Assembly: GCA_030599585.1 (NCBI GenBank)
Contig: JAUVNS010000009.1
Location: 64,001 to 128,000 of the forward strand
DNA: 64,000 nt
Origin: Promethearchaeota archaeon
GTDB taxonomy: Archaea; Asgardarchaeota; Lokiarchaeia; Sigyniarchaeales; SOKP01
Direction: 5' to 3'
The notes under the pieces were generated by a model, which was given only the letters and a program-made list of their open reading frames with translations, was not told the origin of the DNA and made no database searches. Shown here in pieces: positions 1,978-40,221 of this stretch; positions within the stretch are counted from its first letter, which is position 1, and every line of letters begins with the position of its first letter. The position numbers and the translations under genes were made by a program.

Positions 1978-2069
1978 CTTAATAAAAAGACTAAAAATTA
2001 TAATTACGAATTTACATTAGAATAGTATCGCAATAAAACATTAATCAATATTTTTTAAGTTTGATTATA

Positions 2070-2693
2070 ATGACTCCAATTATAACGCATGAAGATGAAC
2101 TTGAACTATCAAGTCTGGAAAAAGAATTAGTATCCCAAATAAAGAAACTAGCAAAGGCTCAGAGCACATTAATTGATTCTCAAAAAAAGTACGCCGATAA
2201 TTTAAAAAAAGCAACACTCACTCGAGAAACACTCAACAGAACATTTAGAGATGTATTGAAACACATGCAGACTCTAGTACGAGAGAAAAGATCAAATATT
2301 AAAGACGAAGAAGTGAAATTATTCCAAGATATTATTCACAAAAACGATGAATACATAGAAGTAAACAACAAGTATATTGATTCGATTAAGGATATTGCCG
2401 TAAAAAAAGACTACTTAGTCGAAAAAAAATACGAATTTGCTTCGGCTTTAAGCGAAGTAGCAAACAAAAGAAGCGTAGTCATCAAAAAAGCATTATCTGT
2501 TGAGAAAAAAAAAAACGATCTAATCGAAGGAGAAAAAATGAAACTTTTAGAGTCTGAATTGAACGATTTGCAAAGAGACTTTGATCGCGCTCGAGATATT
2601 TTAATAAAAAAAATAGACCAATTTTTACAGGTTAAGAACGAAGTAGATGAATTGTGGGTAAATTTAAAAAATAATGTCAACAAAGCTAGCTGA
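2070..2693 (+). CDS. All-helical coiled-coil protein, possible BAR-domain fold
   Basis: ~207 aa, three long amphipathic helices, Lys-rich helix2-3 turn (KKALSVEKKKND..EKMKLLESELNDLQRDFDRAR); fold is an inference. Confidence 0.55.
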   Translation: MTPIITHEDELELSSLEKELVSQIKKLAKAQSTLIDSQKKYADNLKKATLTRETLNRTFRDVLKHMQTLVREKRSNIKDEEVKLFQDIIHKNDEYIEVNNKYIDSIKDIAVKKDYLVEKKYEFASALSEVANKRSVVIKKALSVEKKKNDLIEGEKMKLLESELNDLQRDFDRARDILIKKIDQFLQVKNEVDELWVNLKNNVNKAS

Positions 2694-2823
2694 CTTTAAA
2701 CTTTTTTTATTTTATTTTTATACAATTATCACATATGAACTTAAATTTATTAAATAGTTCAGATATATAATTATTAGAAAAAATACTTGGATAAATCGTT
2801 ATTATTAAATTCGAGAGAATAAA

Positions 2824-3258
2824 ATGGCAGAAGAATTCGCAAATTTCATGCAAGAAACAAAAAAGGCTCCTTTAGAAGAAAAACTAAACGCCTTTGGAGA
2901 CATCGTTGAAAGAATGATGTTTGTAATTTTAAAAATACCCGACTTAGTAGATCAGTCTTTAGCTACTGTAAATCAAAAAATATCCACATTGGAATCACGA
3001 TTCAATACGATTAACAATGAGGTATCATCATTAAGGACCAAAGGCGTTGGGACATCCCCAGTAATCGCTTCACCTACCTCCCCAAGCAGCGCACCACCGC
3101 CTTCTGGAGGCCCGCCTGGAGGTCCACCTGGAGGTCCACCTGGAGGTCCACCACCACCTGGAGGACCCGGAGCCGCTCGTCCAGCAAGTCCGGTGAGCTT
3201 AAGAGGTGCCATAATGGGCGAATTAAAGCAACTTTTTTCTAAGAGAAACCAATCGTGA
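2824..3258 (+). CDS. Coiled-coil + Gly/Pro-rich + C-terminal WH2-like helix protein
   Basis: N-terminal heptads, (GGPP)n/PPPP tract, C-terminal SLRGAIMGELKQLFSKR. Confidence 0.7.
   Translation: MAEEFANFMQETKKAPLEEKLNAFGDIVERMMFVILKIPDLVDQSLATVNQKISTLESRFNTINNEVSSLRTKGVGTSPVIASPTSPSSAPPPSGGPPGGPPGGPPGGPPPPGGPGAARPASPVSLRGAIMGELKQLFSKRNQS
3104..3168 (+). repeat. 12-nt coding tandem repeat (cctggaggtcca-like) encoding GGPP
   Basis: ctggaggcccgc ctggaggtccac ctggaggtccac ctggaggtccaccaccac ctggaggacc. Confidence 0.9.
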
Positions 3259-3559: not shown

Positions 3560-5215
3560 ATGTCCCTCGTGAGGGTTATAAATAATTATTATTATAAAAA
3601 AGCAAAGATAGAAAAAAAACCAAAACCTCTCACACGAAAAGGGTTAAAAGACGAGTTAAAAAATATAGAACGAGATGGAGATTGGCTTCACACCGTTCCG
3701 TTAGCTATAAACTCGTTAAGTGACGATTTAAATATTAAGAAAGATTCCTTCAAATTTCCCGATAGCATAATTTTATTTGAGGCGTGGATGAATTTAGGTT
3801 TTGGAGCCCTTTTTCCTAGATTAGTGCTTCATTACAAATTTCCTGGATTTTTAAAAGGCGAAAAAACGAGGAATGTTTTCCAATTCACATATTCAACTTC
3901 TAGAGGATTCGGATTTCCCATATACTTTGGTCCAGAATTCTATGGGTATATGTTAACGATAGGTAAAATTTTAGAACCTTTGTTTAAATGGAGCCACACT
4001 ATCTGTCACAGAGCAAATCAAGTGATTTATCTTGTTGGAAAAAAATATGAGATAAAAAGACATCACCCTGGAGAATTTGAATCTGTAATTATATCAGAGT
4101 ATAATAACAAAGTGTTTAAAGTAATTGACACACTTTTACACGGATATTATACGCAAGACCCAAAAACACTTGGTGTGTTCTCAAGTTTAGAAAATGCGTT
4201 AGATAATGTTACATTTTCTTATTCTGTAGGAGATCACGCTATGTCTGCTGAAAGAGAAAAATCAAAGAAAACAATTAGCGTATCATTAATTACGCACGAC
4301 ACTATCGTTCGAAAATACAATGTAAATTTTTACGACTATTTAAATGATTTAATAGCAACAGAAAAGTTGATAAAAAGAAAGATCATCCACTTTAAACAGT
4401 TAAGGAAAGAGTTTATTAGTAATCTAAAGAGAATTGATAGAATTAAATTTAGAATCGATCAATCTAAATCATTTTCAATTCCAAGTTTGAAAATTTCTCA
4501 AAAATTTTCTCAAATTCAAGAATGTTCCCTTCATGTTCGACTTATGGAAATAATTATGAAAATGCTATGGACAACCCCCCTTTATACCCATACGATTCAT
4601 AAAACTATCGACGACGAATTCAATCTTCAAAAGCAGAAACGAAATGAATTTATAACTGATTTTAGTAATACATCAATAGATTCAATTTTTTTACTCTTCA
4701 TAAAGAAATTCGAAGAAAGAAACTCGTTTTCTTTCAAAGAAAAGGATGTTATCAATGAATTAGTTAATCTTAAGGATAAAATTGGACCTATGTGGCTTAA
4801 CTTTAAGGAGGAACATTTCAATTTTGCTTTGAAAAAACTAAGCGATCTTTCTACTTTATCGTTGAATGATGTTAGTTATAGGAAGGTTGTAAACGAATAC
4901 ATAGACAACCTTATTCCAATTTTTTCAATTTATGAAATTTTTAATAGAGCTCTTTCAGAATCCGTTTATCCCGAATCAGTTCCTCAAATAAAACGGTTGG
5001 GAGGATATTTTGCTAGTATATTAACCTCAAGGTTTAATCCTTTCGGAGTAAACCTAATGAATCTTTTTAATAAATTAGCGTTTAATAACTGGAGCTATCT
5101 AATAATAAATAGAAAATTAAATCGAAAACAATTTTTCAAATTGATAATGAAACTTCCTATTTGGAAAAATATTCCTAGGACTATTAAAAAGGAAATACTT
5201 AGCTCAGATTTTTAA
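3560..5215 (+). CDS. Hypothetical protein, 551 aa (possible upstream ATC start at 3491)
   Basis: Long ORF, no recognised motif; frame stays open upstream to TGA at 3464. Confidence 0.75.
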   Translation: MSLVRVINNYYYKKAKIEKKPKPLTRKGLKDELKNIERDGDWLHTVPLAINSLSDDLNIKKDSFKFPDSIILFEAWMNLGFGALFPRLVLHYKFPGFLKGEKTRNVFQFTYSTSRGFGFPIYFGPEFYGYMLTIGKILEPLFKWSHTICHRANQVIYLVGKKYEIKRHHPGEFESVIISEYNNKVFKVIDTLLHGYYTQDPKTLGVFSSLENALDNVTFSYSVGDHAMSAEREKSKKTISVSLITHDTIVRKYNVNFYDYLNDLIATEKLIKRKIIHFKQLRKEFISNLKRIDRIKFRIDQSKSFSIPSLKISQKFSQIQECSLHVRLMEIIMKMLWTTPLYTHTIHKTIDDEFNLQKQKRNEFITDFSNTSIDSIFLLFIKKFEERNSFSFKEKDVINELVNLKDKIGPMWLNFKEEHFNFALKKLSDLSTLSLNDVSYRKVVNEYIDNLIPIFSIYEIFNRALSESVYPESVPQIKRLGGYFASILTSRFNPFGVNLMNLFNKLAFNNWSYLIINRKLNRKQFFKLIMKLPIWKNIPRTIKKEILSSDF

Positions 5216-6228: not shown

Positions 6229-7329
6229 ATGGAACATACGAATTTGTCATTAGAATATGATAAGAGCCTGATAGAAAGGGTTCTGGACGATCTAGATATG
6301 AGATACATTATCATGTTTTTGTATATTATCAGAAATGACTTGTTTAAAGACTTAAAGGATCCAAAAATTATAGAGTCTTATGAGAGAGTCATCATTTTAG
6401 ACGAAATATTTAAAAATAACATACTCAACTTTTGGGAAGAAAATTTTATTGAAATAGCTACCGATCTGGGCTTGTTTAAAAATATTCGTAGCATTAGAGA
6501 ATTTAATCATAAAGATGGGGATTTCACAATACGATTAGGAGAAGAGACAATTACAATCGAGAACGACAAAGTATCCGTGCCAGATCATACTCTTTTCTTA
6601 ATGATAAATAAAAAATTTAAGTTTCTTACAAAAAGGAATTATAATTTAGCCTTGATTAAATTAAAAGGAGTAAAATGTCAGAATAGTAATCTGATTCATA
6701 ATTTTATCTCTCAAATGGGAGAAAACGATTTTGCAATATCTGATGACATATACTACATATTAGATCAATTTGGTAATGTTTATCAGGCAATAAAAATTGA
6801 GATCACAATCGAAGGGGTTCACCAGAAATACTTAGATATGAAAGAAAAAATTAACGAGTATATAGATATCTTTGAACCAAAATTGAGGAGTAAATCCGTG
6901 TTAAAAAAAATATTTAAAGCGATTGAGAATGAGAAAGATGTTTTTAAATATCTGAGGGATGAAAAAATTGAACTTCCTGATAAGTTCAACATTGACGAAG
7001 ATTCAGAGAGAAATGAAATTGGCAATGACTGGTATTTAAGAGTGATGGCATTATTGAACACTAGGTTTAAGATGGAACAACTCGACGAGAAAATATTAGA
7101 AACCAAAAAATATTATTCTGGAAAAGATAAAATGTTTAATTATCTTGAATTTATAGAAAAAGTGTCTTTTAACGAAGATAGCATAGTAAATAAAATTCAA
7201 AACATTCTACTTAAACTCAGAGAGGATTTAATAAAAATTAATAAAGAACTTGGAGTATTAACGAAAAAAGAATTAAAATTATTAAATTTAGATTATGAAC
7301 GGTATTTAATTACAAGAAGTGATGATTAA
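6229..7329 (+). CDS. Hypothetical protein, first gene of 8-gene operon
   Basis: 366 aa ORF, helical C-terminal half; 2-nt gap to next gene. Confidence 0.8.
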   Translation: MEHTNLSLEYDKSLIERVLDDLDMRYIIMFLYIIRNDLFKDLKDPKIIESYERVIILDEIFKNNILNFWEENFIEIATDLGLFKNIRSIREFNHKDGDFTIRLGEETITIENDKVSVPDHTLFLMINKKFKFLTKRNYNLALIKLKGVKCQNSNLIHNFISQMGENDFAISDDIYYILDQFGNVYQAIKIEITIEGVHQKYLDMKEKINEYIDIFEPKLRSKSVLKKIFKAIENEKDVFKYLRDEKIELPDKFNIDEDSERNEIGNDWYLRVMALLNTRFKMEQLDEKILETKKYYSGKDKMFNYLEFIEKVSFNEDSIVNKIQNILLKLREDLIKINKELGVLTKKELKLLNLDYERYLITRSDD

Positions 7330-7331
7330 AT

Positions 7332-8288
7332 TTGAAGTGTTCAGCATGTAACATCGAAATGGAACCTTTGGTTTCTGGAATTTACCAATGTCCTCAATGT
7401 AGAAGAATTGTGAAGCAGAAAGACGAAAAAGCTGAAGCTGAAGCTATGAAAGAGGTAGAAAAAGGAGAATTTCTCGAAGGAGAATATTTTCACAATAATC
7501 TAAGTCTAAACAAAAAATACGAAGAGTGCGAACAAGGAATTATTATAAATAAGACCGAATCTCGTTTATTTGCTGTGTTAATCTGTCATAGCGCTTATCT
7601 AAGAGACGAAAAATATGTGAGACTCTCATGGTGGAAAAGTTTTCAGCATGCTGGTATGTTTAAAATCTATGAAAAAGCCGTTCTAAATAATACTATTATC
7701 ACATTAGAAAAATTTAATAAAAATTTTGACGATATTTGGACTTGGGGTGGAAAATACGGAGAAAAAGAACCTAAAACCAAAGATGCAAAAGAGAAAGAAA
7801 AATATTTAGACCTAATTAAATTCAGGATTTTAGAACACCGAACTTGCCCAAAATGTCAAAAAAAAATGTCAAAAAAGAAATCTCATTACGAATGCCAACA
7901 TTGTGGTGAAATAGTTATACTGGAGGGGTATAATCAACCAATTTTTAACATACAATCATCAGAATTGGATTTAGATTTTCAATCCAATTTCCCCATCAAT
8001 TATTACTTGCCAGTAAGCGGTATAACTGTGAAGTGGTTAATGGGAGAGTGGAAAGCACTAGCAGTTATTCACGATAAAGATAATCCTAATAAACAATGGC
8101 TAAGATTTTATTGGTGGATGCGTGACTTAAGCAGTTTATTAAAATACGGAAGGAGAGAAATAGGTGAAGGAATCCAAATGGGCTGGAAAGCCCAAAGAGG
8201 AGTTGCGTCCCCTAACATCTACGATAAAAAACTTATCACGCCTTTAATCAAAGCATTAAAGAGAATAAAACAAGAGTTAGATTGGTGA
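7332..8288 (+). CDS. Duplicated Zn-ribbon + Trp-rich beta module protein
   Basis: CSAC..CPQC and CPKC..CQHC, each followed by a YVRLSWW / WLRFYWW module. Confidence 0.75.
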   Translation: MKCSACNIEMEPLVSGIYQCPQCRRIVKQKDEKAEAEAMKEVEKGEFLEGEYFHNNLSLNKKYEECEQGIIINKTESRLFAVLICHSAYLRDEKYVRLSWWKSFQHAGMFKIYEKAVLNNTIITLEKFNKNFDDIWTWGGKYGEKEPKTKDAKEKEKYLDLIKFRILEHRTCPKCQKKMSKKKSHYECQHCGEIVILEGYNQPIFNIQSSELDLDFQSNFPINYYLPVSGITVKWLMGEWKALAVIHDKDNPNKQWLRFYWWMRDLSSLLKYGRREIGEGIQMGWKAQRGVASPNIYDKKLITPLIKALKRIKQELDW

Positions 8289-8322
8289 AATTGAAAGAAG
8301 ACATACAATTTAGGTGAACAAA

Positions 8323-9462
8323 ATGGAAAGTAATCAAGAGGGCACTTGGCACGAACTTCTTCAAGACTTCGAGAAGGGTTTAGATAAAGCTATGGATGAG
8401 CTCGAAAAACGGGATGTGGAAAACATACCAGGTGCTAAGGAAGCTTTAAAACAGAGGTTAAAGAATATGAGGCTTCATTTTGCTAAAAATAATGGTGAAA
8501 TTTTTTTAAAATCCATTGATGATAAAATTCAAAATGCGTTTTTCCCTAACACAAAAAATTTTTCTGATGCATTTCAAAAAATAATAAAATCTCGTACTCA
8601 CGAACAAGATTTTATCATAAACGAACTGTTAAACGGATTCGTGGCTTCAAAAGCTAAAGCTGTTGCTACGGGAACTCAAGGACCCGTAATTGATAGAATG
8701 GTCGAAGCTTTTAGTAAAAGAAATGATTTTCATATTATTGATCATCAATTTTATGCTATGTTTGGCGACCCTAATAAACCTCGACACTATATTAAAAGTC
8801 AACTTGAAGAGTTGGTTAAATTATTTGGTCTCGTGTCAAAAGAATTAATTATAGAAAAGGATGTTAGAAAAAGCGAAGAAAAAATATTCACTTTTTATAC
8901 TTTTCCGGAAAAGATTATTAAAATACTAGAAGAGAAATATTTAATACTCGACGAAAAATTAGGATATACATATGTTTCTGAAGCATTTGATAGAAATGTA
9001 TTCATATGTATGTTCTTAGCAAATGTGGCCATTAATAGAGATGATTTAGATAAGATTGGTGGATATTATACTTTAAATGGTATCTCGGCCATTTTTGCGT
9101 TAATTCTGCTGTTAAGTTTTTTACCTAAATTATCAATAGATGAAACAAACCCCATCCTTAACGATCCTAATTACGATACAGATACTATGAGTGTTATTCC
9201 TAAATCTTGGATGATGAAACAAGTTTTAGAACCATTGTTCGAACCTTTAATTAAAATCATTGCTTACAGATTAGGGGGTGGTTTATGGTTGTCTAAAATA
9301 ATTGCTTCAGATATTAATAAAAAAATCCATAATCAAATACGTTTTTTGATTAAAGACGTCAATAAATGGGTTCTCGGTCAACTCGTAAGAGTAGAAATAC
9401 CAATCTTCGTAGAAATTTCGAATATTTTCACAGAAATCGTAGTGGGCTACGATGAAAGTTAA
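8323..9462 (+). CDS. Hypothetical protein
   Basis: ORF; AGGTG 6 nt upstream of ATG 8323. Confidence 0.8.
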   Translation: MESNQEGTWHELLQDFEKGLDKAMDELEKRDVENIPGAKEALKQRLKNMRLHFAKNNGEIFLKSIDDKIQNAFFPNTKNFSDAFQKIIKSRTHEQDFIINELLNGFVASKAKAVATGTQGPVIDRMVEAFSKRNDFHIIDHQFYAMFGDPNKPRHYIKSQLEELVKLFGLVSKELIIEKDVRKSEEKIFTFYTFPEKIIKILEEKYLILDEKLGYTYVSEAFDRNVFICMFLANVAINRDDLDKIGGYYTLNGISAIFALILLLSFLPKLSIDETNPILNDPNYDTDTMSVIPKSWMMKQVLEPLFEPLIKIIAYRLGGGLWLSKIIASDINKKIHNQIRFLIKDVNKWVLGQLVRVEIPIFVEISNIFTEIVVGYDES

Positions 9463-9488
9463 TAGCAATGATAAATTGAGTGAGAATT

Positions 9489-10796
9489 ATGAGTTATAAA
9501 AGAAAAACAACAAGGAATGTTAGGCCTGGGAGAAAAAGGGAGAAGTGGACAGATATCTTACCGAGGTACCTTACATTTTTAACTCATATGCGCCCAATAC
9601 TAAGAGAAACAAGAAGGATAATAATTGATTTGGATGCCGACCTTCTTTTAGATACAGAAATTCTAGACAAAATTCGGGAAGAAGAAGAAAAGCGAAATTT
9701 TAGAAAAGTAAGAGCTTTATCAGAATTTTCCGCAATGTACAGGTCAAATATCTATGAAATTATAAAAGATTTCTTAGTTAAATATAGGAATCAAATACCT
9801 ATCCTTGATATTAAAGATTATATTATTGAATTCTTATACGAATCAATCGGGGCTCTGAATACTTTGTCACACATCACTAACCCAGACGAAGCAAATTTAG
9901 AAAACACATATCTTTATGTTTTAGCTAAGTTCATTGAAGAACGACTCTTCTCTCGAGGTAGAAATTTAAGTATTATATATAGTACCTTATTAGGTTATTC
10001 TTCAGATTTATACGATTGTCAGAGACATATGCTCCAACCACATACTTATTATCGTGAAAAATTAGAATCCTCTGATTTATTTGAAATTCCTGGAATATCC
10101 CCTAAAGTTTACAATATTATCAATAACGTAACCTCACTTTTTAATTTGGATCCGAATTTCGGAGAATTCCCTGAACGAGAAAATCAGGAACTGCCAATGA
10201 TATTAAAACCTGAAGTATTCGATCCTTATATTGATTCTATAGCAAATGCAGAAGAAGAAGCTATCGTACAAATTTCTGAACGATTTGGACTGCGATTAAT
10301 AGACGGAATCTTCCTTGCTCCAAGAGAAGACCTAGTAGATTTACTAACAGAAAATAATTTTTTGCGAAAAAATTCACAATCAGATGGAAAAGTACGATTA
10401 ATACCTCAACTAAGCAATGAAAGCTTATTTCTCTATTATTTAGCTTTCGCATCCCAGAGAAGAGGTTTTTTATCGAAAGAATTAATAAATTGGATTTCAA
10501 TGAATTTCGCTTTTTTAATTTATATGGGTATTTTGAAGTGGAAGTTGTCAGATCAAAATATTTTCTATCCTATCTTTAAGGATTTACAGACAAATGAGAA
10601 GATTTTACCTTATTTAATGAAACTTCTCTGTTTTCCTAACTATCTAAGTATTGATAAAATGAAAATACGGGATTCTCCACAATATAGAAAAGAAATTTTT
10701 AACTTTATTGGTTCTCAAATCGATAATCTTAAAGATTTTATCTCAGAAATAGCTGAATTTTGTGAAAAGTTTGATAAAGAAAGAAAAAATAACTAA
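9489..10796 (+). CDS. Hypothetical protein with basic N-terminus
   Basis: ~435 aa ORF in operon. Confidence 0.8.
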   Translation: MSYKRKTTRNVRPGRKREKWTDILPRYLTFLTHMRPILRETRRIIIDLDADLLLDTEILDKIREEEEKRNFRKVRALSEFSAMYRSNIYEIIKDFLVKYRNQIPILDIKDYIIEFLYESIGALNTLSHITNPDEANLENTYLYVLAKFIEERLFSRGRNLSIIYSTLLGYSSDLYDCQRHMLQPHTYYREKLESSDLFEIPGISPKVYNIINNVTSLFNLDPNFGEFPERENQELPMILKPEVFDPYIDSIANAEEEAIVQISERFGLRLIDGIFLAPREDLVDLLTENNFLRKNSQSDGKVRLIPQLSNESLFLYYLAFASQRRGFLSKELINWISMNFAFLIYMGILKWKLSDQNIFYPIFKDLQTNEKILPYLMKLLCFPNYLSIDKMKIRDSPQYRKEIFNFIGSQIDNLKDFISEIAEFCEKFDKERKNN

Positions 10797-10812
10797 ATTA
10801 GAATAAAAAGAG

Positions 10813-11931
10813 ATGAGAAAAATGAGCAATTCAAAAGATGATGGAGACGGGAAGATAACTTTCACCGAAGACGTCATTAAAAGTAGGTTAGGTAAATATG
10901 GAGCGGTATATTTTCCTTCCGCCATACAAGAATCAATAGATGATATTCTAGGTAATGAGAATATAAAAGAAATTTTACACGATTTCTTTAAAGCTTTGAA
11001 GAAATACTATGAATTTAGTAAACGATTAAAGGGAGCAAAACTCAACCCGAGTTTAACCGTTCTCTTGTATGGCCCACCAGGTACAGGTAAAACTTCTCTA
11101 ACAAGAGGGTTTGCAAAGCATTACGATATTCCATTATGTGTAGTAGAAACTGATAGGTTAGTTTCTCCATTGCTAGGAGATACTATTAAACAAATCAGGA
11201 ATGTCGTGGATTTAGCAGCAGAGATAGCAAAGGAACGTGGTAATTTTATCCTTTTCTTTGACGAAATAGATGCTATAGGCTCCGAAAGATCTAATATTCA
11301 TGAAGTAGGTGAGATCAAACGAGCTGTTATTTCATTTTTACAAGTAATTGATAGAATAAATTATGAGGGAGTACCCTTAGCAATTTTTGGGGCTACCAAC
11401 CATCAAAATCAACTAGACTCAGCGATTTGGAGGCGGTTCACGTTTCACTTTAGCTTTGAATTCCCAGAATATCCTCTGAGAAAAAAAATAATTGAATCAT
11501 TCCTTGCTAAAGTTAAAAATGCGAAAATCGGCGTTGATAACTCAATATACACCAATTTAGCCAAAGAATACGAAATGATTCAAAAGATACATAGTAATCT
11601 TACAAGTAAACTAGGATACGAAATCTCTGAGTTTAGTGATACTCTACTTTGGGACGAAATCAATAAAATCAGCAAAAACCAAGGATTGTTAGAGCTTACA
11701 ATAGGATTTTCAGGTTCAGATATTGAAAGAGGAACGAAAGTATCGCTCTTAAAAGCTATTAATACAGAACGCTTAACTTACGATTTATTTTACAATTCTC
11801 TAAAATTAGTGGGAGGGACCGCTATACATGTTGAAAGACAAGATATTTTAACCGATTCAAAACAAAATTTTTTAAAATCTTCGAAAAATGAGCAGAAAAA
11901 ACGCTATATGAAAAGTCCTCCAGAAATCTAA
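10813..11931 (+). CDS. Classical-clade AAA+ ATPase (single domain)
   Basis: Walker A GPPGTGKT, Walker B FFDEID, GATN..LDSAIWRRF (SRH), GFSGSDI. Confidence 0.92.
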   Translation: MRKMSNSKDDGDGKITFTEDVIKSRLGKYGAVYFPSAIQESIDDILGNENIKEILHDFFKALKKYYEFSKRLKGAKLNPSLTVLLYGPPGTGKTSLTRGFAKHYDIPLCVVETDRLVSPLLGDTIKQIRNVVDLAAEIAKERGNFILFFDEIDAIGSERSNIHEVGEIKRAVISFLQVIDRINYEGVPLAIFGATNHQNQLDSAIWRRFTFHFSFEFPEYPLRKKIIESFLAKVKNAKIGVDNSIYTNLAKEYEMIQKIHSNLTSKLGYEISEFSDTLLWDEINKISKNQGLLELTIGFSGSDIERGTKVSLLKAINTERLTYDLFYNSLKLVGGTAIHVERQDILTDSKQNFLKSSKNEQKKRYMKSPPEI

Positions 11932-11978
11932 GATATTTTTTTTTAAATACGAATAAAAAAATAAATTTACTTGAAAAA

Positions 11979-13013
11979 ATGGAAATAGAATTATTTAACC
12001 TTGAAAAGATAAAGGGATTAACCGCCCCCATTAAAGCTTTACAAGGAAGAGTCAACCAAGTATCAAATCTCGTAAAAAATATAGAACCTGACCAAAAATT
12101 AGCTTCATCTTATTACGGAAACAATTTACTTTTTAAAGAACTCGAACAATTAACAAAATATGTAGATAAAATCAATGATAATTTAAAGATTGTCTCAAAC
12201 AATAACATTAACAAATTTTTAAAATTGAAAAACTACTTAATCAATAAATACAAGCAATCAATTAAAGATAGCTTGAAAACCATTGATTTGGACAATGAAA
12301 ATTTAACACAGATTGGCCTATCATTAATTGAAAATAAATCAATTAGTAAAATAATTGAAAGAATAACGTACATTCCTTCTGTCACCATTAAACAGTGGCT
12401 TGATTTATTAGATGCTTTAAATCAGAACACGATTTTCCTAAAATCTGTTGACAATTTAAGAGAACACTATAAAACAATTTTACAGGACAAATTAAAAAAG
12501 GAACTGGCAAAAATACCCCGTAATGTAGAATCTTTCACAATCGAAGATTTTAAAAGACAATTTCATATCACACCTGAGTTAACCTATGATAAATTCATTC
12601 AATCGATTGAACATAAACTTACTGAAGAAGAATTAAAATCGAAGAAAGAGCTCTTGGAAAAAAAAAAAGAAAAACAAAAGATTGAAGACCTAAAAAAACA
12701 ACAGGAAGAGCAAACGGAATCTTATGATAGTTATTTAAAATTCTCAAATAAAGAATTCGAAAGAAGATTGCGAAAACAGAAACGCGAAAAATTGACTGAT
12801 ATTAGCGACACGGAAAACAAGAAGGACATTGAAATAACAGAAGAAATCTCCCAGAAAATCGAGATGTTTAAAAAACAAATGGATAAAAGATCACAAGACC
12901 AACACATTAATCTCGGTGATCCTAGCGCAGACCCAATAAAATTAATTAGGGAAAGAAAAAGAAAAAAAAAGGAAGAGTATGACGAGTTTAAGGATCATTT
13001 TGAAAGCGATTAA
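11979..13013 (+). CDS. Coiled-coil hypothetical protein
   Basis: 344 aa, charged helical C-terminus. Confidence 0.75.
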   Translation: MEIELFNLEKIKGLTAPIKALQGRVNQVSNLVKNIEPDQKLASSYYGNNLLFKELEQLTKYVDKINDNLKIVSNNNINKFLKLKNYLINKYKQSIKDSLKTIDLDNENLTQIGLSLIENKSISKIIERITYIPSVTIKQWLDLLDALNQNTIFLKSVDNLREHYKTILQDKLKKELAKIPRNVESFTIEDFKRQFHITPELTYDKFIQSIEHKLTEEELKSKKELLEKKKEKQKIEDLKKQQEEQTESYDSYLKFSNKEFERRLRKQKREKLTDISDTENKKDIEITEEISQKIEMFKKQMDKRSQDQHINLGDPSADPIKLIRERKRKKKEEYDEFKDHFESD

Positions 13014-13026
13014 ATACTAAAGTGGA

Positions 13027-14649
13027 GTGAAATTACGCATTAATAAAAAAAGGACTGAGATTATTGTAGGAGAAAATAAGATCTTTATAGAAGATCGATA
13101 TACTTTAGTACAAGGGAAATTTAAGCTTAATCAATTTCATGAATATTATAATGACGATTATCTTAAGATTCAAGAAAATTTGGATTTAATTCCAGTAGAA
13201 AAATTTATCAAAGTAATTTCAAACGAATCAAATAGCTTATCAGGCTTAACAAATTTTACCAAAATACTAGATCTCTTATCTGGTTATAGTAAGATTGTTG
13301 AAAATAATCTAGAAATCTATGTAAAATTTAGCGAAAATATAGAAATTTTGCATACCCTCTTTAAATTGATCTATTTCTCAACAAAAATGAAAACCCTGTC
13401 TAAAGAGTTAGAATTATCAAAAATTCGTAATCTTTCGAGCGATATCTTAGCTACTGCAGATTTAATGAAAAGTTTGGCAGAATCTATAAACAACAACAAG
13501 GTCAAATCGTCCTACATCAAAGAAGATTATTTTCAACGGAAAAATCAAATTGACAAAATCAAGAAAGATCAAACAATTTATGAAACACTAATTCAAGATC
13601 AATCCCAAATTAAAAAAAATTGTTTTGATCAAATCAATAAAATCACTAGGCAATTAGAGGGCTCAAAAACAGAAAATGAAAATGAATCGTTTTTACGGTT
13701 AGGTATTGATACAAATTTAACAAATTCAGAGAAGATAAGAGCCCTTCAAAAAAGAGCAAAAGATACGCAATATGAAATTAACAAGATTAGGCTAAGATCA
13801 AAACAATCACAAGCAGAATTCGAAGAATTATCGCCAAATTATGAAATTTACAGAATTGATTATGAAGAAATTTTAGAAGCCATAAACGAAGACGAGAAGA
13901 AATTGAGACAAGTTCAAAAGGACTATGAAAAAAAAGTTATGGAAAATAAAGAGTTTCAATTTGGAGAGACTAAAGAGTTACTCTCACGACCTATTAGGCC
14001 ATCTTTAGAGATTGAACAAGAACTAAAAAATGTTGAAACTGAATTAGATAATTTATCGTTTCCTGTTAATTTAAATAAGAAAAACTTACCAAGTAAAATA
14101 CCTATAATAACAGAGAAGTTTAAAGAAATTGATGCTATCCTTAGAAATAACGATGATTATATAAATATTAACGCAAATGAAGAAGAAATCGAAGAATTTT
14201 TTGAAAATTTTCGTATTTTTGAGAATCTTCTTAAGAACTTTGAAAATATTGCGAATAAGTTTCTAAAAACAATTCAACTCCAAGTACAGTTTAACCTCGT
14301 TACAAACCAAATGAACACTGCTTTTTTGATAAAGACGGATTTCACAAGAAATTTTAAAATTAAAGTAAGTTTTGAGAATTTAACTACTCCTGAAAAAATT
14401 TTTTTCCTAATAAGTTTTTTTATCTCGTTTAAAGTTTTGTTAAATTCAAAAAATATTATTTTTTCAAATTTATTCATTCTTCCGGTATATAATAAAGGTG
14501 GTTCAATATATAGAACCATCAGGAAAATTATCCCTTTATTTGAAACTGACGAAAATTTATCTGATGTGAGTATTATATTGCTTATGTCAAATCTAATGTT
14601 GAAAAAAGATATCGAAAAATTGAAAATTATAAAAGTAAATGAGAGTTGA
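13027..14649 (+). CDS. Long coiled-coil protein with degenerate SMC/Rad50-like C-terminal head
   Basis: ~300 aa coiled coil, then ANKFLKTIQLQVQFNL...FENLTTPEKIFFLISF (LSGGEK position); no Walker A. Confidence 0.55.
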   Translation: MKLRINKKRTEIIVGENKIFIEDRYTLVQGKFKLNQFHEYYNDDYLKIQENLDLIPVEKFIKVISNESNSLSGLTNFTKILDLLSGYSKIVENNLEIYVKFSENIEILHTLFKLIYFSTKMKTLSKELELSKIRNLSSDILATADLMKSLAESINNNKVKSSYIKEDYFQRKNQIDKIKKDQTIYETLIQDQSQIKKNCFDQINKITRQLEGSKTENENESFLRLGIDTNLTNSEKIRALQKRAKDTQYEINKIRLRSKQSQAEFEELSPNYEIYRIDYEEILEAINEDEKKLRQVQKDYEKKVMENKEFQFGETKELLSRPIRPSLEIEQELKNVETELDNLSFPVNLNKKNLPSKIPIITEKFKEIDAILRNNDDYININANEEEIEEFFENFRIFENLLKNFENIANKFLKTIQLQVQFNLVTNQMNTAFLIKTDFTRNFKIKVSFENLTTPEKIFFLISFFISFKVLLNSKNIIFSNLFILPVYNKGGSIYRTIRKIIPLFETDENLSDVSIILLMSNLMLKKDIEKLKIIKVNES

Positions 14650-15170
14650 TGAGAGATCAAATGGAAACTGTGAATTTTGAAGATATTGTGAAAAATATCG
14701 CTAAAATTGTCATAACAAGCCCACAAAAAATGATTAGAGAAGAAGATCTTCTGATTTTAACTAAGAACTTGGATTTTGAACAGGTGATAAGCGCTGTTTA
14801 TTCAAATTTGAAAAATGTTGGGTTTGAATTTATCAAATCAAGGTTTTTAGATCAAAATTATTACATTTTAACTTCTGAAGGAAAAGATGATAGAGTTACT
14901 CCATCACAATACGGAACTCTAGCCCTAATCCTTGCGCTTAGCAAAGAATTGGATGAAAACTTAGACATAAATGATCTAAAAAATATTTTTAAAGAAGTAT
15001 GGAATACTGATATGAAATTTTTAATCGAAAACGATTATTTAAGGAAAATCGAAGATCAAAACATACTAAAAATAACGCCATTAGGAAAAGCACTTTTAAA
15101 AAATATAATTAAAGATATTGAATTAAAAAACTTGTTGGAAGCCTTTAAAAGAAAAAAAGAAACAGCTTAA
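14646..15170 (+). CDS. Tandem winged-helix protein, KITE (ScpB/Nse1/Nse3-MAGE)-like
   Basis: NLKNVGFEF..NYYILT..QYGTLALILAL..LIENDYLRK..KITPLGK pattern; overlaps upstream stop. Confidence 0.55.
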   Translation: MMRDQMETVNFEDIVKNIAKIVITSPQKMIREEDLLILTKNLDFEQVISAVYSNLKNVGFEFIKSRFLDQNYYILTSEGKDDRVTPSQYGTLALILALSKELDENLDINDLKNIFKEVWNTDMKFLIENDYLRKIEDQNILKITPLGKALLKNIIKDIELKNLLEAFKRKKETA

Positions 15171-39150: not shown

Positions 39151-40221
39151 ATGGGAAGACGTGAAAGCCCTCTAAAAACGATTTTAAGGCAACGATTTTA
39201 TTTTCTATTCGAAGTATTGATAATTTTCCTTGGCATTTTTATTTTCATGTTAATTCCTACTTTTCTGTTGCCATTTTTGATTGATAGTAGTTCTGTGATT
39301 TTTGAACCTCTTTATTATTTAGTAAAGGCCATTATTATAGTCGTAGCCATACCTTTATTTCTTTACATATCATATTTTATAATGGAAAAACAGAGAAAAA
39401 TATTGATTTTAGATGTAGACATTAGTCCTTCAAGAGGTTTTCTTAGTTTGTTTAAGATAACACGTAAAAATTTTAAATTTCAACTCTTATACGGTGTATT
39501 ATTGCTTTTTTTAATTTTCATACCATTAGATTTTTTTACTTATCTCTTTATTCCTGATATGCTTGATTTTGTTTCCACAGCATTACAACCCGCAGGAGAA
39601 TCTTCTTTAAATAATTATTTCAACGAGAATTACTTCATTTTTCTTCTATCAATCATCTTGATACCTCTGTGTGTTGCGATTTATGAAGAATCGTTAACAA
39701 GAGGCTTTTTAACTAACAGAGGAAGTGAATACACTAATAAAATGTCGGCGGTGATAATTACTTCATTTTTCTTCGGTTTGGGTCATTTTAGTTATATATT
39801 TACGGCACCCTCAATCGGATTTCCAATTATTTTTCCGATTATTTGGTTTTTACAAACATTCTTAGTGGGTATTGTTCTTTCTATGGTAGTTTTAAGAAGG
39901 CATTGGATTTTTCCAGTGATCTTCGCACATACTCTAAATAATGTTATCACATCTTTCTCGATTTGGAACAATATACACCATATTGATTTTTCGTTTATGA
40001 CATTTTATGTTTACATTCCTTTATTGATAACAGGAATACTACTCTTAATTTGGCAATTTTCTCGAATTAAAGAGAGTTTAACAATAGGTTGGAAGGAATT
40101 TAAAAGCTATTTTACCCGTGATGAAACTATCAGAGAAGGTACGCTAGAAACTGTTGTTAGAATTATAATGGATTTTTTATTTGGAATACTTATTTTTGTA
40201 ATTGGAGTAATAATATTATAG
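39151..40221 (+). CDS. CPBP (CAAX/Abi) intramembrane glutamic endopeptidase
   Basis: EESLTRG, FGLGH, HTLNN; multiple TM segments. Confidence 0.9.
   Translation: MGRRESPLKTILRQRFYFLFEVLIIFLGIFIFMLIPTFLLPFLIDSSSVIFEPLYYLVKAIIIVVAIPLFLYISYFIMEKQRKILILDVDISPSRGFLSLFKITRKNFKFQLLYGVLLLFLIFIPLDFFTYLFIPDMLDFVSTALQPAGESSLNNYFNENYFIFLLSIILIPLCVAIYEESLTRGFLTNRGSEYTNKMSAVIITSFFFGLGHFSYIFTAPSIGFPIIFPIIWFLQTFLVGIVLSMVVLRRHWIFPVIFAHTLNNVITSFSIWNNIHHIDFSFMTFYVYIPLLITGILLLIWQFSRIKESLTIGWKEFKSYFTRDETIREGTLETVVRIIMDFLFGILIFVIGVIIL

Follow-up and report, generated by a model that had tools for sequence, protein, structure and literature searches.

A short protein of Asgard archaea with a coiled coil, a conserved terminal helix and a proline-rich arm between them, a candidate adaptor between actin, small GTPases and membranes

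According to the accessible parts of PMC13716822 and its preprint, no regulators of Asgard actin other than profilins and gelsolins have been characterised so far. Co-immunoprecipitation of Lokiactin from a cultured Lokiarchaeon, as given in those parts of PMC13716822, enriched actin itself, together with one profilin, five proteins of gelsolin homology and an ARF GTPase (UYP48373.1 in the supplement); two proteins containing BAR domains were also detected, below significance. Therefore a network of GTPases, BAR proteins and actin exists around Asgard actin. Motifs resembling WH2 are described in Asgard, in the accessible text of PMC9433394 and of the crawling-motility paper, only inside gelsolin linkers, which contact actin. 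Here we describe a gene for a protein of 144 amino acids (aa) at positions 2824..3258 (+) of a 64,000-bp stretch of contig JAUVNS010000009.1 from a Promethearchaeota archaeon; the whole stretch is further referred to as the window, and the genome it comes from as the host genome. The gene is conserved across the phylum, and its parts recur in fusions with GTPase, gelsolin and profilin domains. The account that we favour, tentatively and at a little less than an even chance, is an oligomeric adaptor in a network of actin, GTPases and membranes, in which actin ranks first among the candidate partners of the terminal helix.

The gene starts with ATG, and its range includes the stop codon; the call is supported by the list of open reading frames (ORFs), the sequence and the homologues. 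The host genome contains one full-length copy of the family. As exact sequences, neither the window protein nor its orthologue from the genome G230 is present in a collection of 15 billion proteins, which does include the adjacent upstream neighbour CC210; the gene therefore seems to be missed often, or called with other boundaries, perhaps owing to its GC-rich low-complexity tract, and this would conceal it from proteomics databases as well. A sequence-only reading of the window had proposed the order of coiled coil, polyproline and end helix for this gene. The layout was borne out, and the ORF and all three strings quoted in that reading are exact. The structure model was built by AlphaFold2 from a 33-sequence alignment. 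The most conserved part is the N-terminal head (residues 1–45, 2824..2958, +) with the pattern AEEF..F..APLEEKLNAFGDIVE..M..L.IPDLVDQS; in the model it consists of a helix (residues 2–14), a kink at P16 and the beginning of a long helix (residues 17–73), both helices having predicted local distance difference test (pLDDT) values of about 90. The long helix includes the coiled coil (residues 42–70, 2947..3033, +; pLDDT at least 90), whose sequence is variable with the a/d pattern kept. Residues V42, L46, V49, I53, L56, F60, I63, V67 and L70 follow the strict 4-3-4-3 spacing of canonical heptads. Because of this spacing of the hydrophobic residues the coiled-coil call is sound, and the coil contains four heptads.

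The coil is followed by a Pro/Gly-rich arm (residues 74–124, 3043..3195, +) including SGGPPGGPPGGPPGGPPPPGGPG, with pLDDT below 50; residues 74–125 are disordered in the model. The window is AT-rich, of archaeal character, with GC content of approximately 30%, and the GC content reaches a peak of 0.59 at the Pro/Gly tract compared to about 0.30 in the surroundings. The last segment (residues 125–144, 3196..3255, +; SLRGAIMGELKQLFSKRNQS) is a conserved terminal helix and a putative docking motif, modelled as a helix at residues 126–143 with pLDDT of about 60–79. The C-terminus of the window copy ends with ...KRNQS. No family could be assigned from Pfam, where the sole match of the protein at E ≤ 1 was DUF1664 (E 0.15).

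The word-indexed search yielded 204 proteins at E ≤ 0.01, and all those carrying names are annotated as hypothetical. An exhaustive HMMER search of 1.84 billion cluster representatives yielded 91 at E ≤ 1e-3. Close relatives are near-invariant over the first 45 residues and over roughly the last 25, and vary in the coil and the arm. An unbiased set of 27 representatives with 23–65% identity was used for assessing conservation. All three parts of the layout are kept in this set, E133 and K135 are invariant, and L134 is nearly so; hence the check on conservation of the C-terminal helix that the sequence-only reading had named came out positive, the two residues being retained in relatives down to 23% identity. 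The head is still recognisable at 23–49% identity. The architecture as a whole is kept from 95% down to 23% identity, with the arm free to change in length and sequence.

The pattern E-[LIV]-[KR]-x-h-[FLI] occurs within the last 40 residues of 171 out of 209 pooled homologues, the remaining 38 being fragments, fusions or divergent forms. Counted relative to this pattern, R at −6, I at −3, M at −2, L at +4, F at +5 and K-R at +7/+8 each occur in 147–163 of the 171 members. The length of the arm, considered in 53 members, is 31–81 residues (median 52), and it consists of 37% Pro and 19% Gly; runs of at least three prolines were observed in 45 of these members and runs of at least five, in 34. 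Statements about helix conservation rest on these homologue sets and not on the scan of 80 loci used for synteny (see below), where identity of the end helix was discounted since LRGAIM[GS]EL was one of the two locus search patterns.

The distribution was assessed in a sample of genomes of the phylum that are at least 80% complete. Matches at E ≤ 1e-5 were found in 148 of 201 genomes and in 72 of the 88 high-quality ones. The gene is near-universal in many taxonomic families (43/45 genomes in the family of the host, 48/48 in f10, 13/14 in f15) and rare in several others (4/24 in f8, 1/12 in f24, 0/4 in f22). This spread shows that the gene is old and phylum-wide in Asgard archaea, extending beyond Loki alone.

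The whole module also forms the C-terminal tail of the Arf/Rag(Gtr1)-like GTPases P0163, P0187 and P0204, whose GTPase domains were confirmed. Outside the family, it is to these tails that full-length similarity is strongest, with P0163 aligning to query residues 15–142 (E 1.5e-8), and the end helix is near-identical in P0163 and P0187. The host itself encodes a tailed Arf/Rag-like GTPase (C34:70921-72198, +) of approximately 425 aa that ends with ...SRLKVLDELKLLFDKKKK, its helix following a proline-rich stretch (...SRLKVLDELKLLFDKKKKLNL). A 144-codon open frame elsewhere in the host genome (C15:29975-30406, −) has the same type of helix after a proline-rich stretch (...NNRLAIINELKEKFKKRGLQSL). 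As two further host ORFs end in this helix type, the end helix looks like a portable motif, judging from the sequences. When longer proteins were searched with residues 105–144, none of 1314 candidates matched at E ≤ 0.01; this is weak evidence, and the GTPase tails were picked up by the exhaustive search. Homology between the window protein and the tails extends from the head-like helix through the coil and the proline arm to the terminal helix. Unlike the tailed proteins, the window protein has neither the GTPase domain nor the N-terminal region resembling a helix-hairpin-helix, and conservation of its head exceeds that of the corresponding stretch in the tail of the host GTPase (N-terminal sub-profile E 0.02). 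Literature searches, which did not extend to subscription-only papers, gave no account of this family or of the tails, and a term search of two papers on Asgard Arf proteins found no mention of the tails either.

These tails allow for a different account, in which the module serves GTPases without actin. It would be the dimerisation and effector-docking tail of Arf/Rag-like GTPases, and the free-standing copy would compete with the tail or bridge it, by forming a coil heterodimer or via a common effector. This account has on its side the best full-length similarity outside the family, the near-identical helix of P0163 and P0187 and the presence of both free-standing and tailed forms in the host. 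Moreover, arfaptin, a protein with a BAR domain that binds Arf, Arl and Rac, is among the best structural matches of the upstream neighbour CC210 (see below). On the other hand, no effector was identified, and the tailed GTPase is not among the six best matches in G230 (same order; closed genome of 6.0 Mb), though the free-standing protein is present there. The combination of the head with gelsolin and profilin, described next, is also left unexplained, and we consider a purely GTPase-related role doubtful.

The head is found together with actin-regulatory domains in several proteins. In P0137 it is embedded with a gelsolin domain similar to the solved Lokiarchaeota 2DGel 7whg_G (E 9e-11). In P0210 the module is flanked by a first domain that is gelsolin-like and by a Pfam Gelsolin repeat (E 3.4e-7). 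The 758-aa protein P0211 contains, in this order, a Rab-like GTPase, a gelsolin repeat, the head, a zinc ribbon, a diverged form of the end helix, additional polyproline and, last, a profilin domain matching 7pbh_A (E 3.5e-10) and 5zza_P (E 4.3e-7); it is an all-in-one candidate actin-control protein. Forms fused to Ras were also found (P0162, P0171). The end helix is missing in P0137, and its invariant E or K is lost in P0210 and P0211, whereas E-L-K is intact in the GTPase fusions P0163, P0187 and P0204. This three-versus-three split fits an end helix that supplies what gelsolin otherwise supplies, but as an observation it is only an anecdote. As far as sequence comparison goes, the fusions give the link to actin indirect support. 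The part of the sequence-only reading that proposed an actin regulator is upheld to this extent, by fusion of the head to gelsolin and profilin domains; its specific claims of WH2 and of a nucleation-promoting factor remained without support, as follows.

A true homologue of nucleation-promoting factors would insert its end helix, as a divergent WH2, into the barbed-end cleft of actin and nucleate filaments in the manner of WASP, WAVE and WASH. The order of the parts agrees with this, and the initial ten helix residues (RGAIMGELKQ) look similar to the starts of some WH2 helices. Like the end helix, WH2 (PF02205) is a short helix whose hydrophobic residues are spaced i, i+4 and i+7 and precede basic ones, and the hydrophobic face of the predicted helix 126–143 could fill the actin cleft. 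WH2-like motifs of the LKKT type do exist in Asgard, in the gelsolin linkers described in the accessible text of PMC9433394. However, WH2 was not among the Pfam matches of the protein at E ≤ 1, and PF02205 had no match across the whole host genome at E ≤ 10 (28 candidates scored), a genome that encodes one Lokiactin-type actin (L002:1498-2640, −), three actin-related proteins and a profilin-like gene (C4:26452-26736). A profile of the end helix only (A3, 28 diverse sequences) was compared with 177,635 PDB sequences; none of the eight matches at E ≤ 10 was an actin binder of the WH2, thymosin or any other type, and a designed coiled-coil peptide scored best (E 0.1). The claimed WH2 homology thus found no match to Pfam WH2 or to a solved WH2 or actin-binding peptide.

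The position tallies over the 171 members point in the same direction. The segment LFSKR had been taken as a loose LKKT; the motif L-[KR]-[KR]-[TV] after a linker is absent, and the E-L-K core is directly followed, inside the helix, by L, F, A/S, K, R and K. The family therefore differs from WH2, which has a linker and L-K-K-T/V and of which an invariant E-L-K core is not a feature. Nor does the family have the VCA connector and acidic tail with a conserved tryptophan. Three or more D/E residues follow the basic block in just 7 of the 171 members, and one member has a tryptophan in its tail. The remark that an acidic tail is lacking is hence correct as regards the family and incorrect for these seven members, a point of agreement with WASP-type proteins in few members only. 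One of them is the orthologue from G230 (L132:1501-1956, +), which ends with ...KRRTDDDDDD, six aspartates directly after the basic helix. Dependence on Arp2/3 cannot be argued. The homologue of WH2 or nucleation-promoting factors is disfavoured by the missing profile match and LKKT and by a tail that is not a family feature: as far as sequences tell, no kinship of the 144-aa protein with WH2 or WASP proteins can be detected, and we consider such an origin of the helix very improbable.

The favoured account can be put as follows. The gene would be the free-standing form of an Asgard-wide adaptor module consisting of the head with the coil, the Pro/Gly arm and a terminal docking helix. The head most likely oligomerises and/or holds a conserved partner, for which CC210 is the obvious candidate in the family of the host. 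The arm would act as a spacer and may also present polyproline ligands, and the end helix would insert into a groove of a conserved partner. The fused domains (gelsolin, profilin, Rab/Ras, Arf/Rag-like) would place the module where GTPase switches and membranes couple to Lokiactin. If the partner of the helix is actin, the protein may work as a miniature factor of the Ena/VASP type. We infer oligomerisation, all binding partners and any effect on actin from the conservation, predicted architecture, fusions and neighbourhood of the gene.

A more specific version of this account, which we find unlikely, is that of an independently arisen archaeal counterpart of Ena/VASP, an oligomer that would use its arms and helices to trap actin, alone or together with profilin, where the BAR-like partner shapes membranes; the GTPase fusions would then wire an actin-capturing tail directly to an Arf/Rag-like switch. 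In functional terms it would share with Ena/VASP a coil for oligomerisation, an arm rich in proline and a short amphipathic helix of basic character, and the end helix may resemble the actin-binding blocks of EVH2. The differences are the lack of EVH1, the coil at the N-terminus and not at the C-terminus, one helix instead of two and no detectable homology. Were this version true, a link from GTPase signalling to actin assembly within one protein would predate eukaryotes. In design the protein falls among modular adaptors that combine an oligomeriser, a proline arm and a short docking helix. Being small, single-copy, strongly conserved throughout the phylum and related in its modules to gelsolin, profilin, Rab-like and Arf/Rag-like proteins, it is a candidate for a missing class of regulator or tether. 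If the end helix binds actin, adaptors made of polyproline plus an actin-binding helix, and direct coupling of GTPases to actin, would be older than eukaryotes.

The chief rival concerns membranes. The terminal helix could be a basic, partly amphipathic membrane-targeting sequence on a flexible linker, comparable to the C-terminal membrane-targeting helices of the MinD/FtsA type. For Asgard GTPases it would take the role that in eukaryotic Ras/Rab belongs to the hypervariable region with its lipid anchor, and the free-standing protein would be a membrane-anchored coiled-coil tether, perhaps acting together with its BAR-like neighbour. In the prediction residues 126–143 form a short amphipathic helix with L126, I130, L134, L137 and F138 on the hydrophobic face and small residues (G128, A129, G132, S/A139) on the opposite one. 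The position of this helix at the extreme C-terminus after a disordered arm, and also at the end of small GTPases, is what a tether would have. The same holds for the net charge of +3 with the basic K-R-K block, which stands beside an invariant Glu, for the hydrophobic moment of 0.63 of the core 11-mer IMGELKQLFSK, and for the neighbour CC210, whose predicted fold is similar to that of membrane-binding BAR proteins.

In contrast, the moment over 18 residues is low (0.27–0.32 by Fauchere-Pliska, 0.08 by Eisenberg) since the hydrophobic face also carries R127 and R141. Lipid-binding helices usually conserve only their physicochemical character, so that the invariant Glu and the invariance of the sequence across relatives with 23% identity are unusual for one. 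Fusions with gelsolin and profilin also point to actin rather than lipid. The constraint on both faces and the E-L-K core would, in terms of the model, fit a helix packed into a protein groove better than one at a membrane surface. Hence we consider a membrane tether possible but rather unlikely. If the helix does bind membrane, it would show how Asgard small GTPases lacking lipid anchors get to membranes; with either partner, the outcome bears on the origin of the eukaryotic interface between cytoskeleton and membrane. Of interest in this respect is a window gene (39151-40221, +) for an Rce1-like protein of the type II CAAX prenyl endopeptidase family (Pfam E 1.3e-15), a family that is nevertheless broad in prokaryotes.

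Another rival, which we regard as very improbable, is a MIT-interacting motif, whereby the end helix would bind the MIT domain of Vps4 or of some other MIT protein and connect the protein to ESCRT. In its favour, the helix is short, leucine-rich and C-terminal behind a proline-rich region, as in ESCRT-III tails, and the host genome contains a Vps4-like gene with MIT. Against it, the helix by inspection departs from the MIM1 pattern, having an acidic residue at the place of an expected arginine; the AAA ATPase of the window (10813-11931) has neither MIT nor Vps4_C, the MIT-bearing gene is located on a different contig, and the conserved neighbourhood contains no ESCRT gene.

The gene immediately upstream, CC210 (2061..2693, +), encodes a BAR-like three-helix protein. 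Its true start is likely the ATG at 2070 according to the alignment consensus, and the resulting 207-aa form is the one present in the protein collection. It has no Pfam family. The structure is confidently predicted as a three-helix bundle; the best structural matches are BAR proteins (arfaptin, FAM92A, SNX1, Pil1/Lsp1), and the similarity is borderline for a helical bundle. Pfam FAM92 (PF06730) had no match in the host genome, but the control also matched nowhere. The synteny scan covered the best 80 of 126 loci, all with at least 50% identity and so mostly close kin; at least 1.5 kb of upstream sequence was available in 72 of them and at least 2.5 kb of downstream sequence in 67. CC210 recurs on the strand of the 144-aa gene in 78 of the 80 loci, with a median gap of about 145 bp. 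Also on this strand are radical-SAM (75 loci), Pelota (69), unk366 (65), ZnR318 (61), unk382 (57) and unk551 (55), and Elf1 is on the opposite strand in 72. In G039, from another family of the order (L141:2141-3281, −), orthologues of both genes are adjacent in swapped order, the 144-aa protein first, with a 124-bp gap; this recurring adjacency counts in favour of the adaptor account. Eukaryotic pairings of BAR domains with actin regulators (the I-BAR proteins IRSp53 and MIM; arfaptin; FAM92) differ from this arrangement: here the two are separate genes with no SH3 domain, the BAR-likeness of CC210 is borderline, and the pairing is limited to a part of one order. RNA evidence for the two genes is thin: one metatranscriptome-type run (X1) contains 8 short contigs of 77–222 nt with 3–10 differing letters each, covering parts of CC210 and bases 2821–3013 at the 144-aa gene, with nothing past about 3058; they stem from relatives of the strain, and a library of this type does not demonstrate transcription.

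Genes flanking the 144-aa gene in the window include Pelota/eRF1-like, Elf1, fibrillarin/Nop5 and SRP54. Directly downstream, unk551 (3560..5215, +) encodes 551 aa with no Pfam match and is a possible context partner. Farther on, eight genes in one direction (6229-15170, +) are almost all of no known family (366, 318 with zinc ribbons, 382, 438, 344, 540 and 174 aa) and include the AAA ATPase at 10813-11931; the first three are syntenic in 57–65 of the 80 loci, and the block looks like an operon-like unit that has not been described.

Several observations weigh against the adaptor with actin as the partner of its helix. Neither of the sequence tests (Pfam, the PDB profile) ties the end helix to a known actin-binding motif. 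The multi-domain fusions are few (P0137, P0164, P0210 and P0211 together with the Ras forms P0162 and P0171), and a domain fusion speaks for a common context, not for what the end helix binds; in G230 the tail is lacking from all six best Arf/Rag-like GTPases. CC210 is confined to one order (99/105 genomes in f1, 7/9 in f2, and 0/6 in other families of the class), and it is separated from the gene of the 144-aa protein by approximately 260 kb in G203 and approximately 390 kb in G230. The link to CC210 is plausible, yet with this range and these distances, compared to a phylum-wide gene, CC210 cannot be a universal or obligatory partner.

Published data add two further points of this kind. Profilins of Loki-1, Loki-2 and Odin did not bind a VASP polyproline peptide, while those of Heimdall-LC3 and Thor bound VASP polyproline with millimolar affinity, according to the accessible text of PMC8410842, where the ligand was not a native Asgard tract. 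The 144-aa family could not be placed, by synteny and exact-sequence mapping, in the proteome and co-immunoprecipitation tables in the accessible parts of PMC13716822. The neighbourhood of the Pelota gene GNAMCCOK_02289 did not reproduce the synteny of the window; in G230 the orthologue adjoins an Elf1-like gene and not Pelota.

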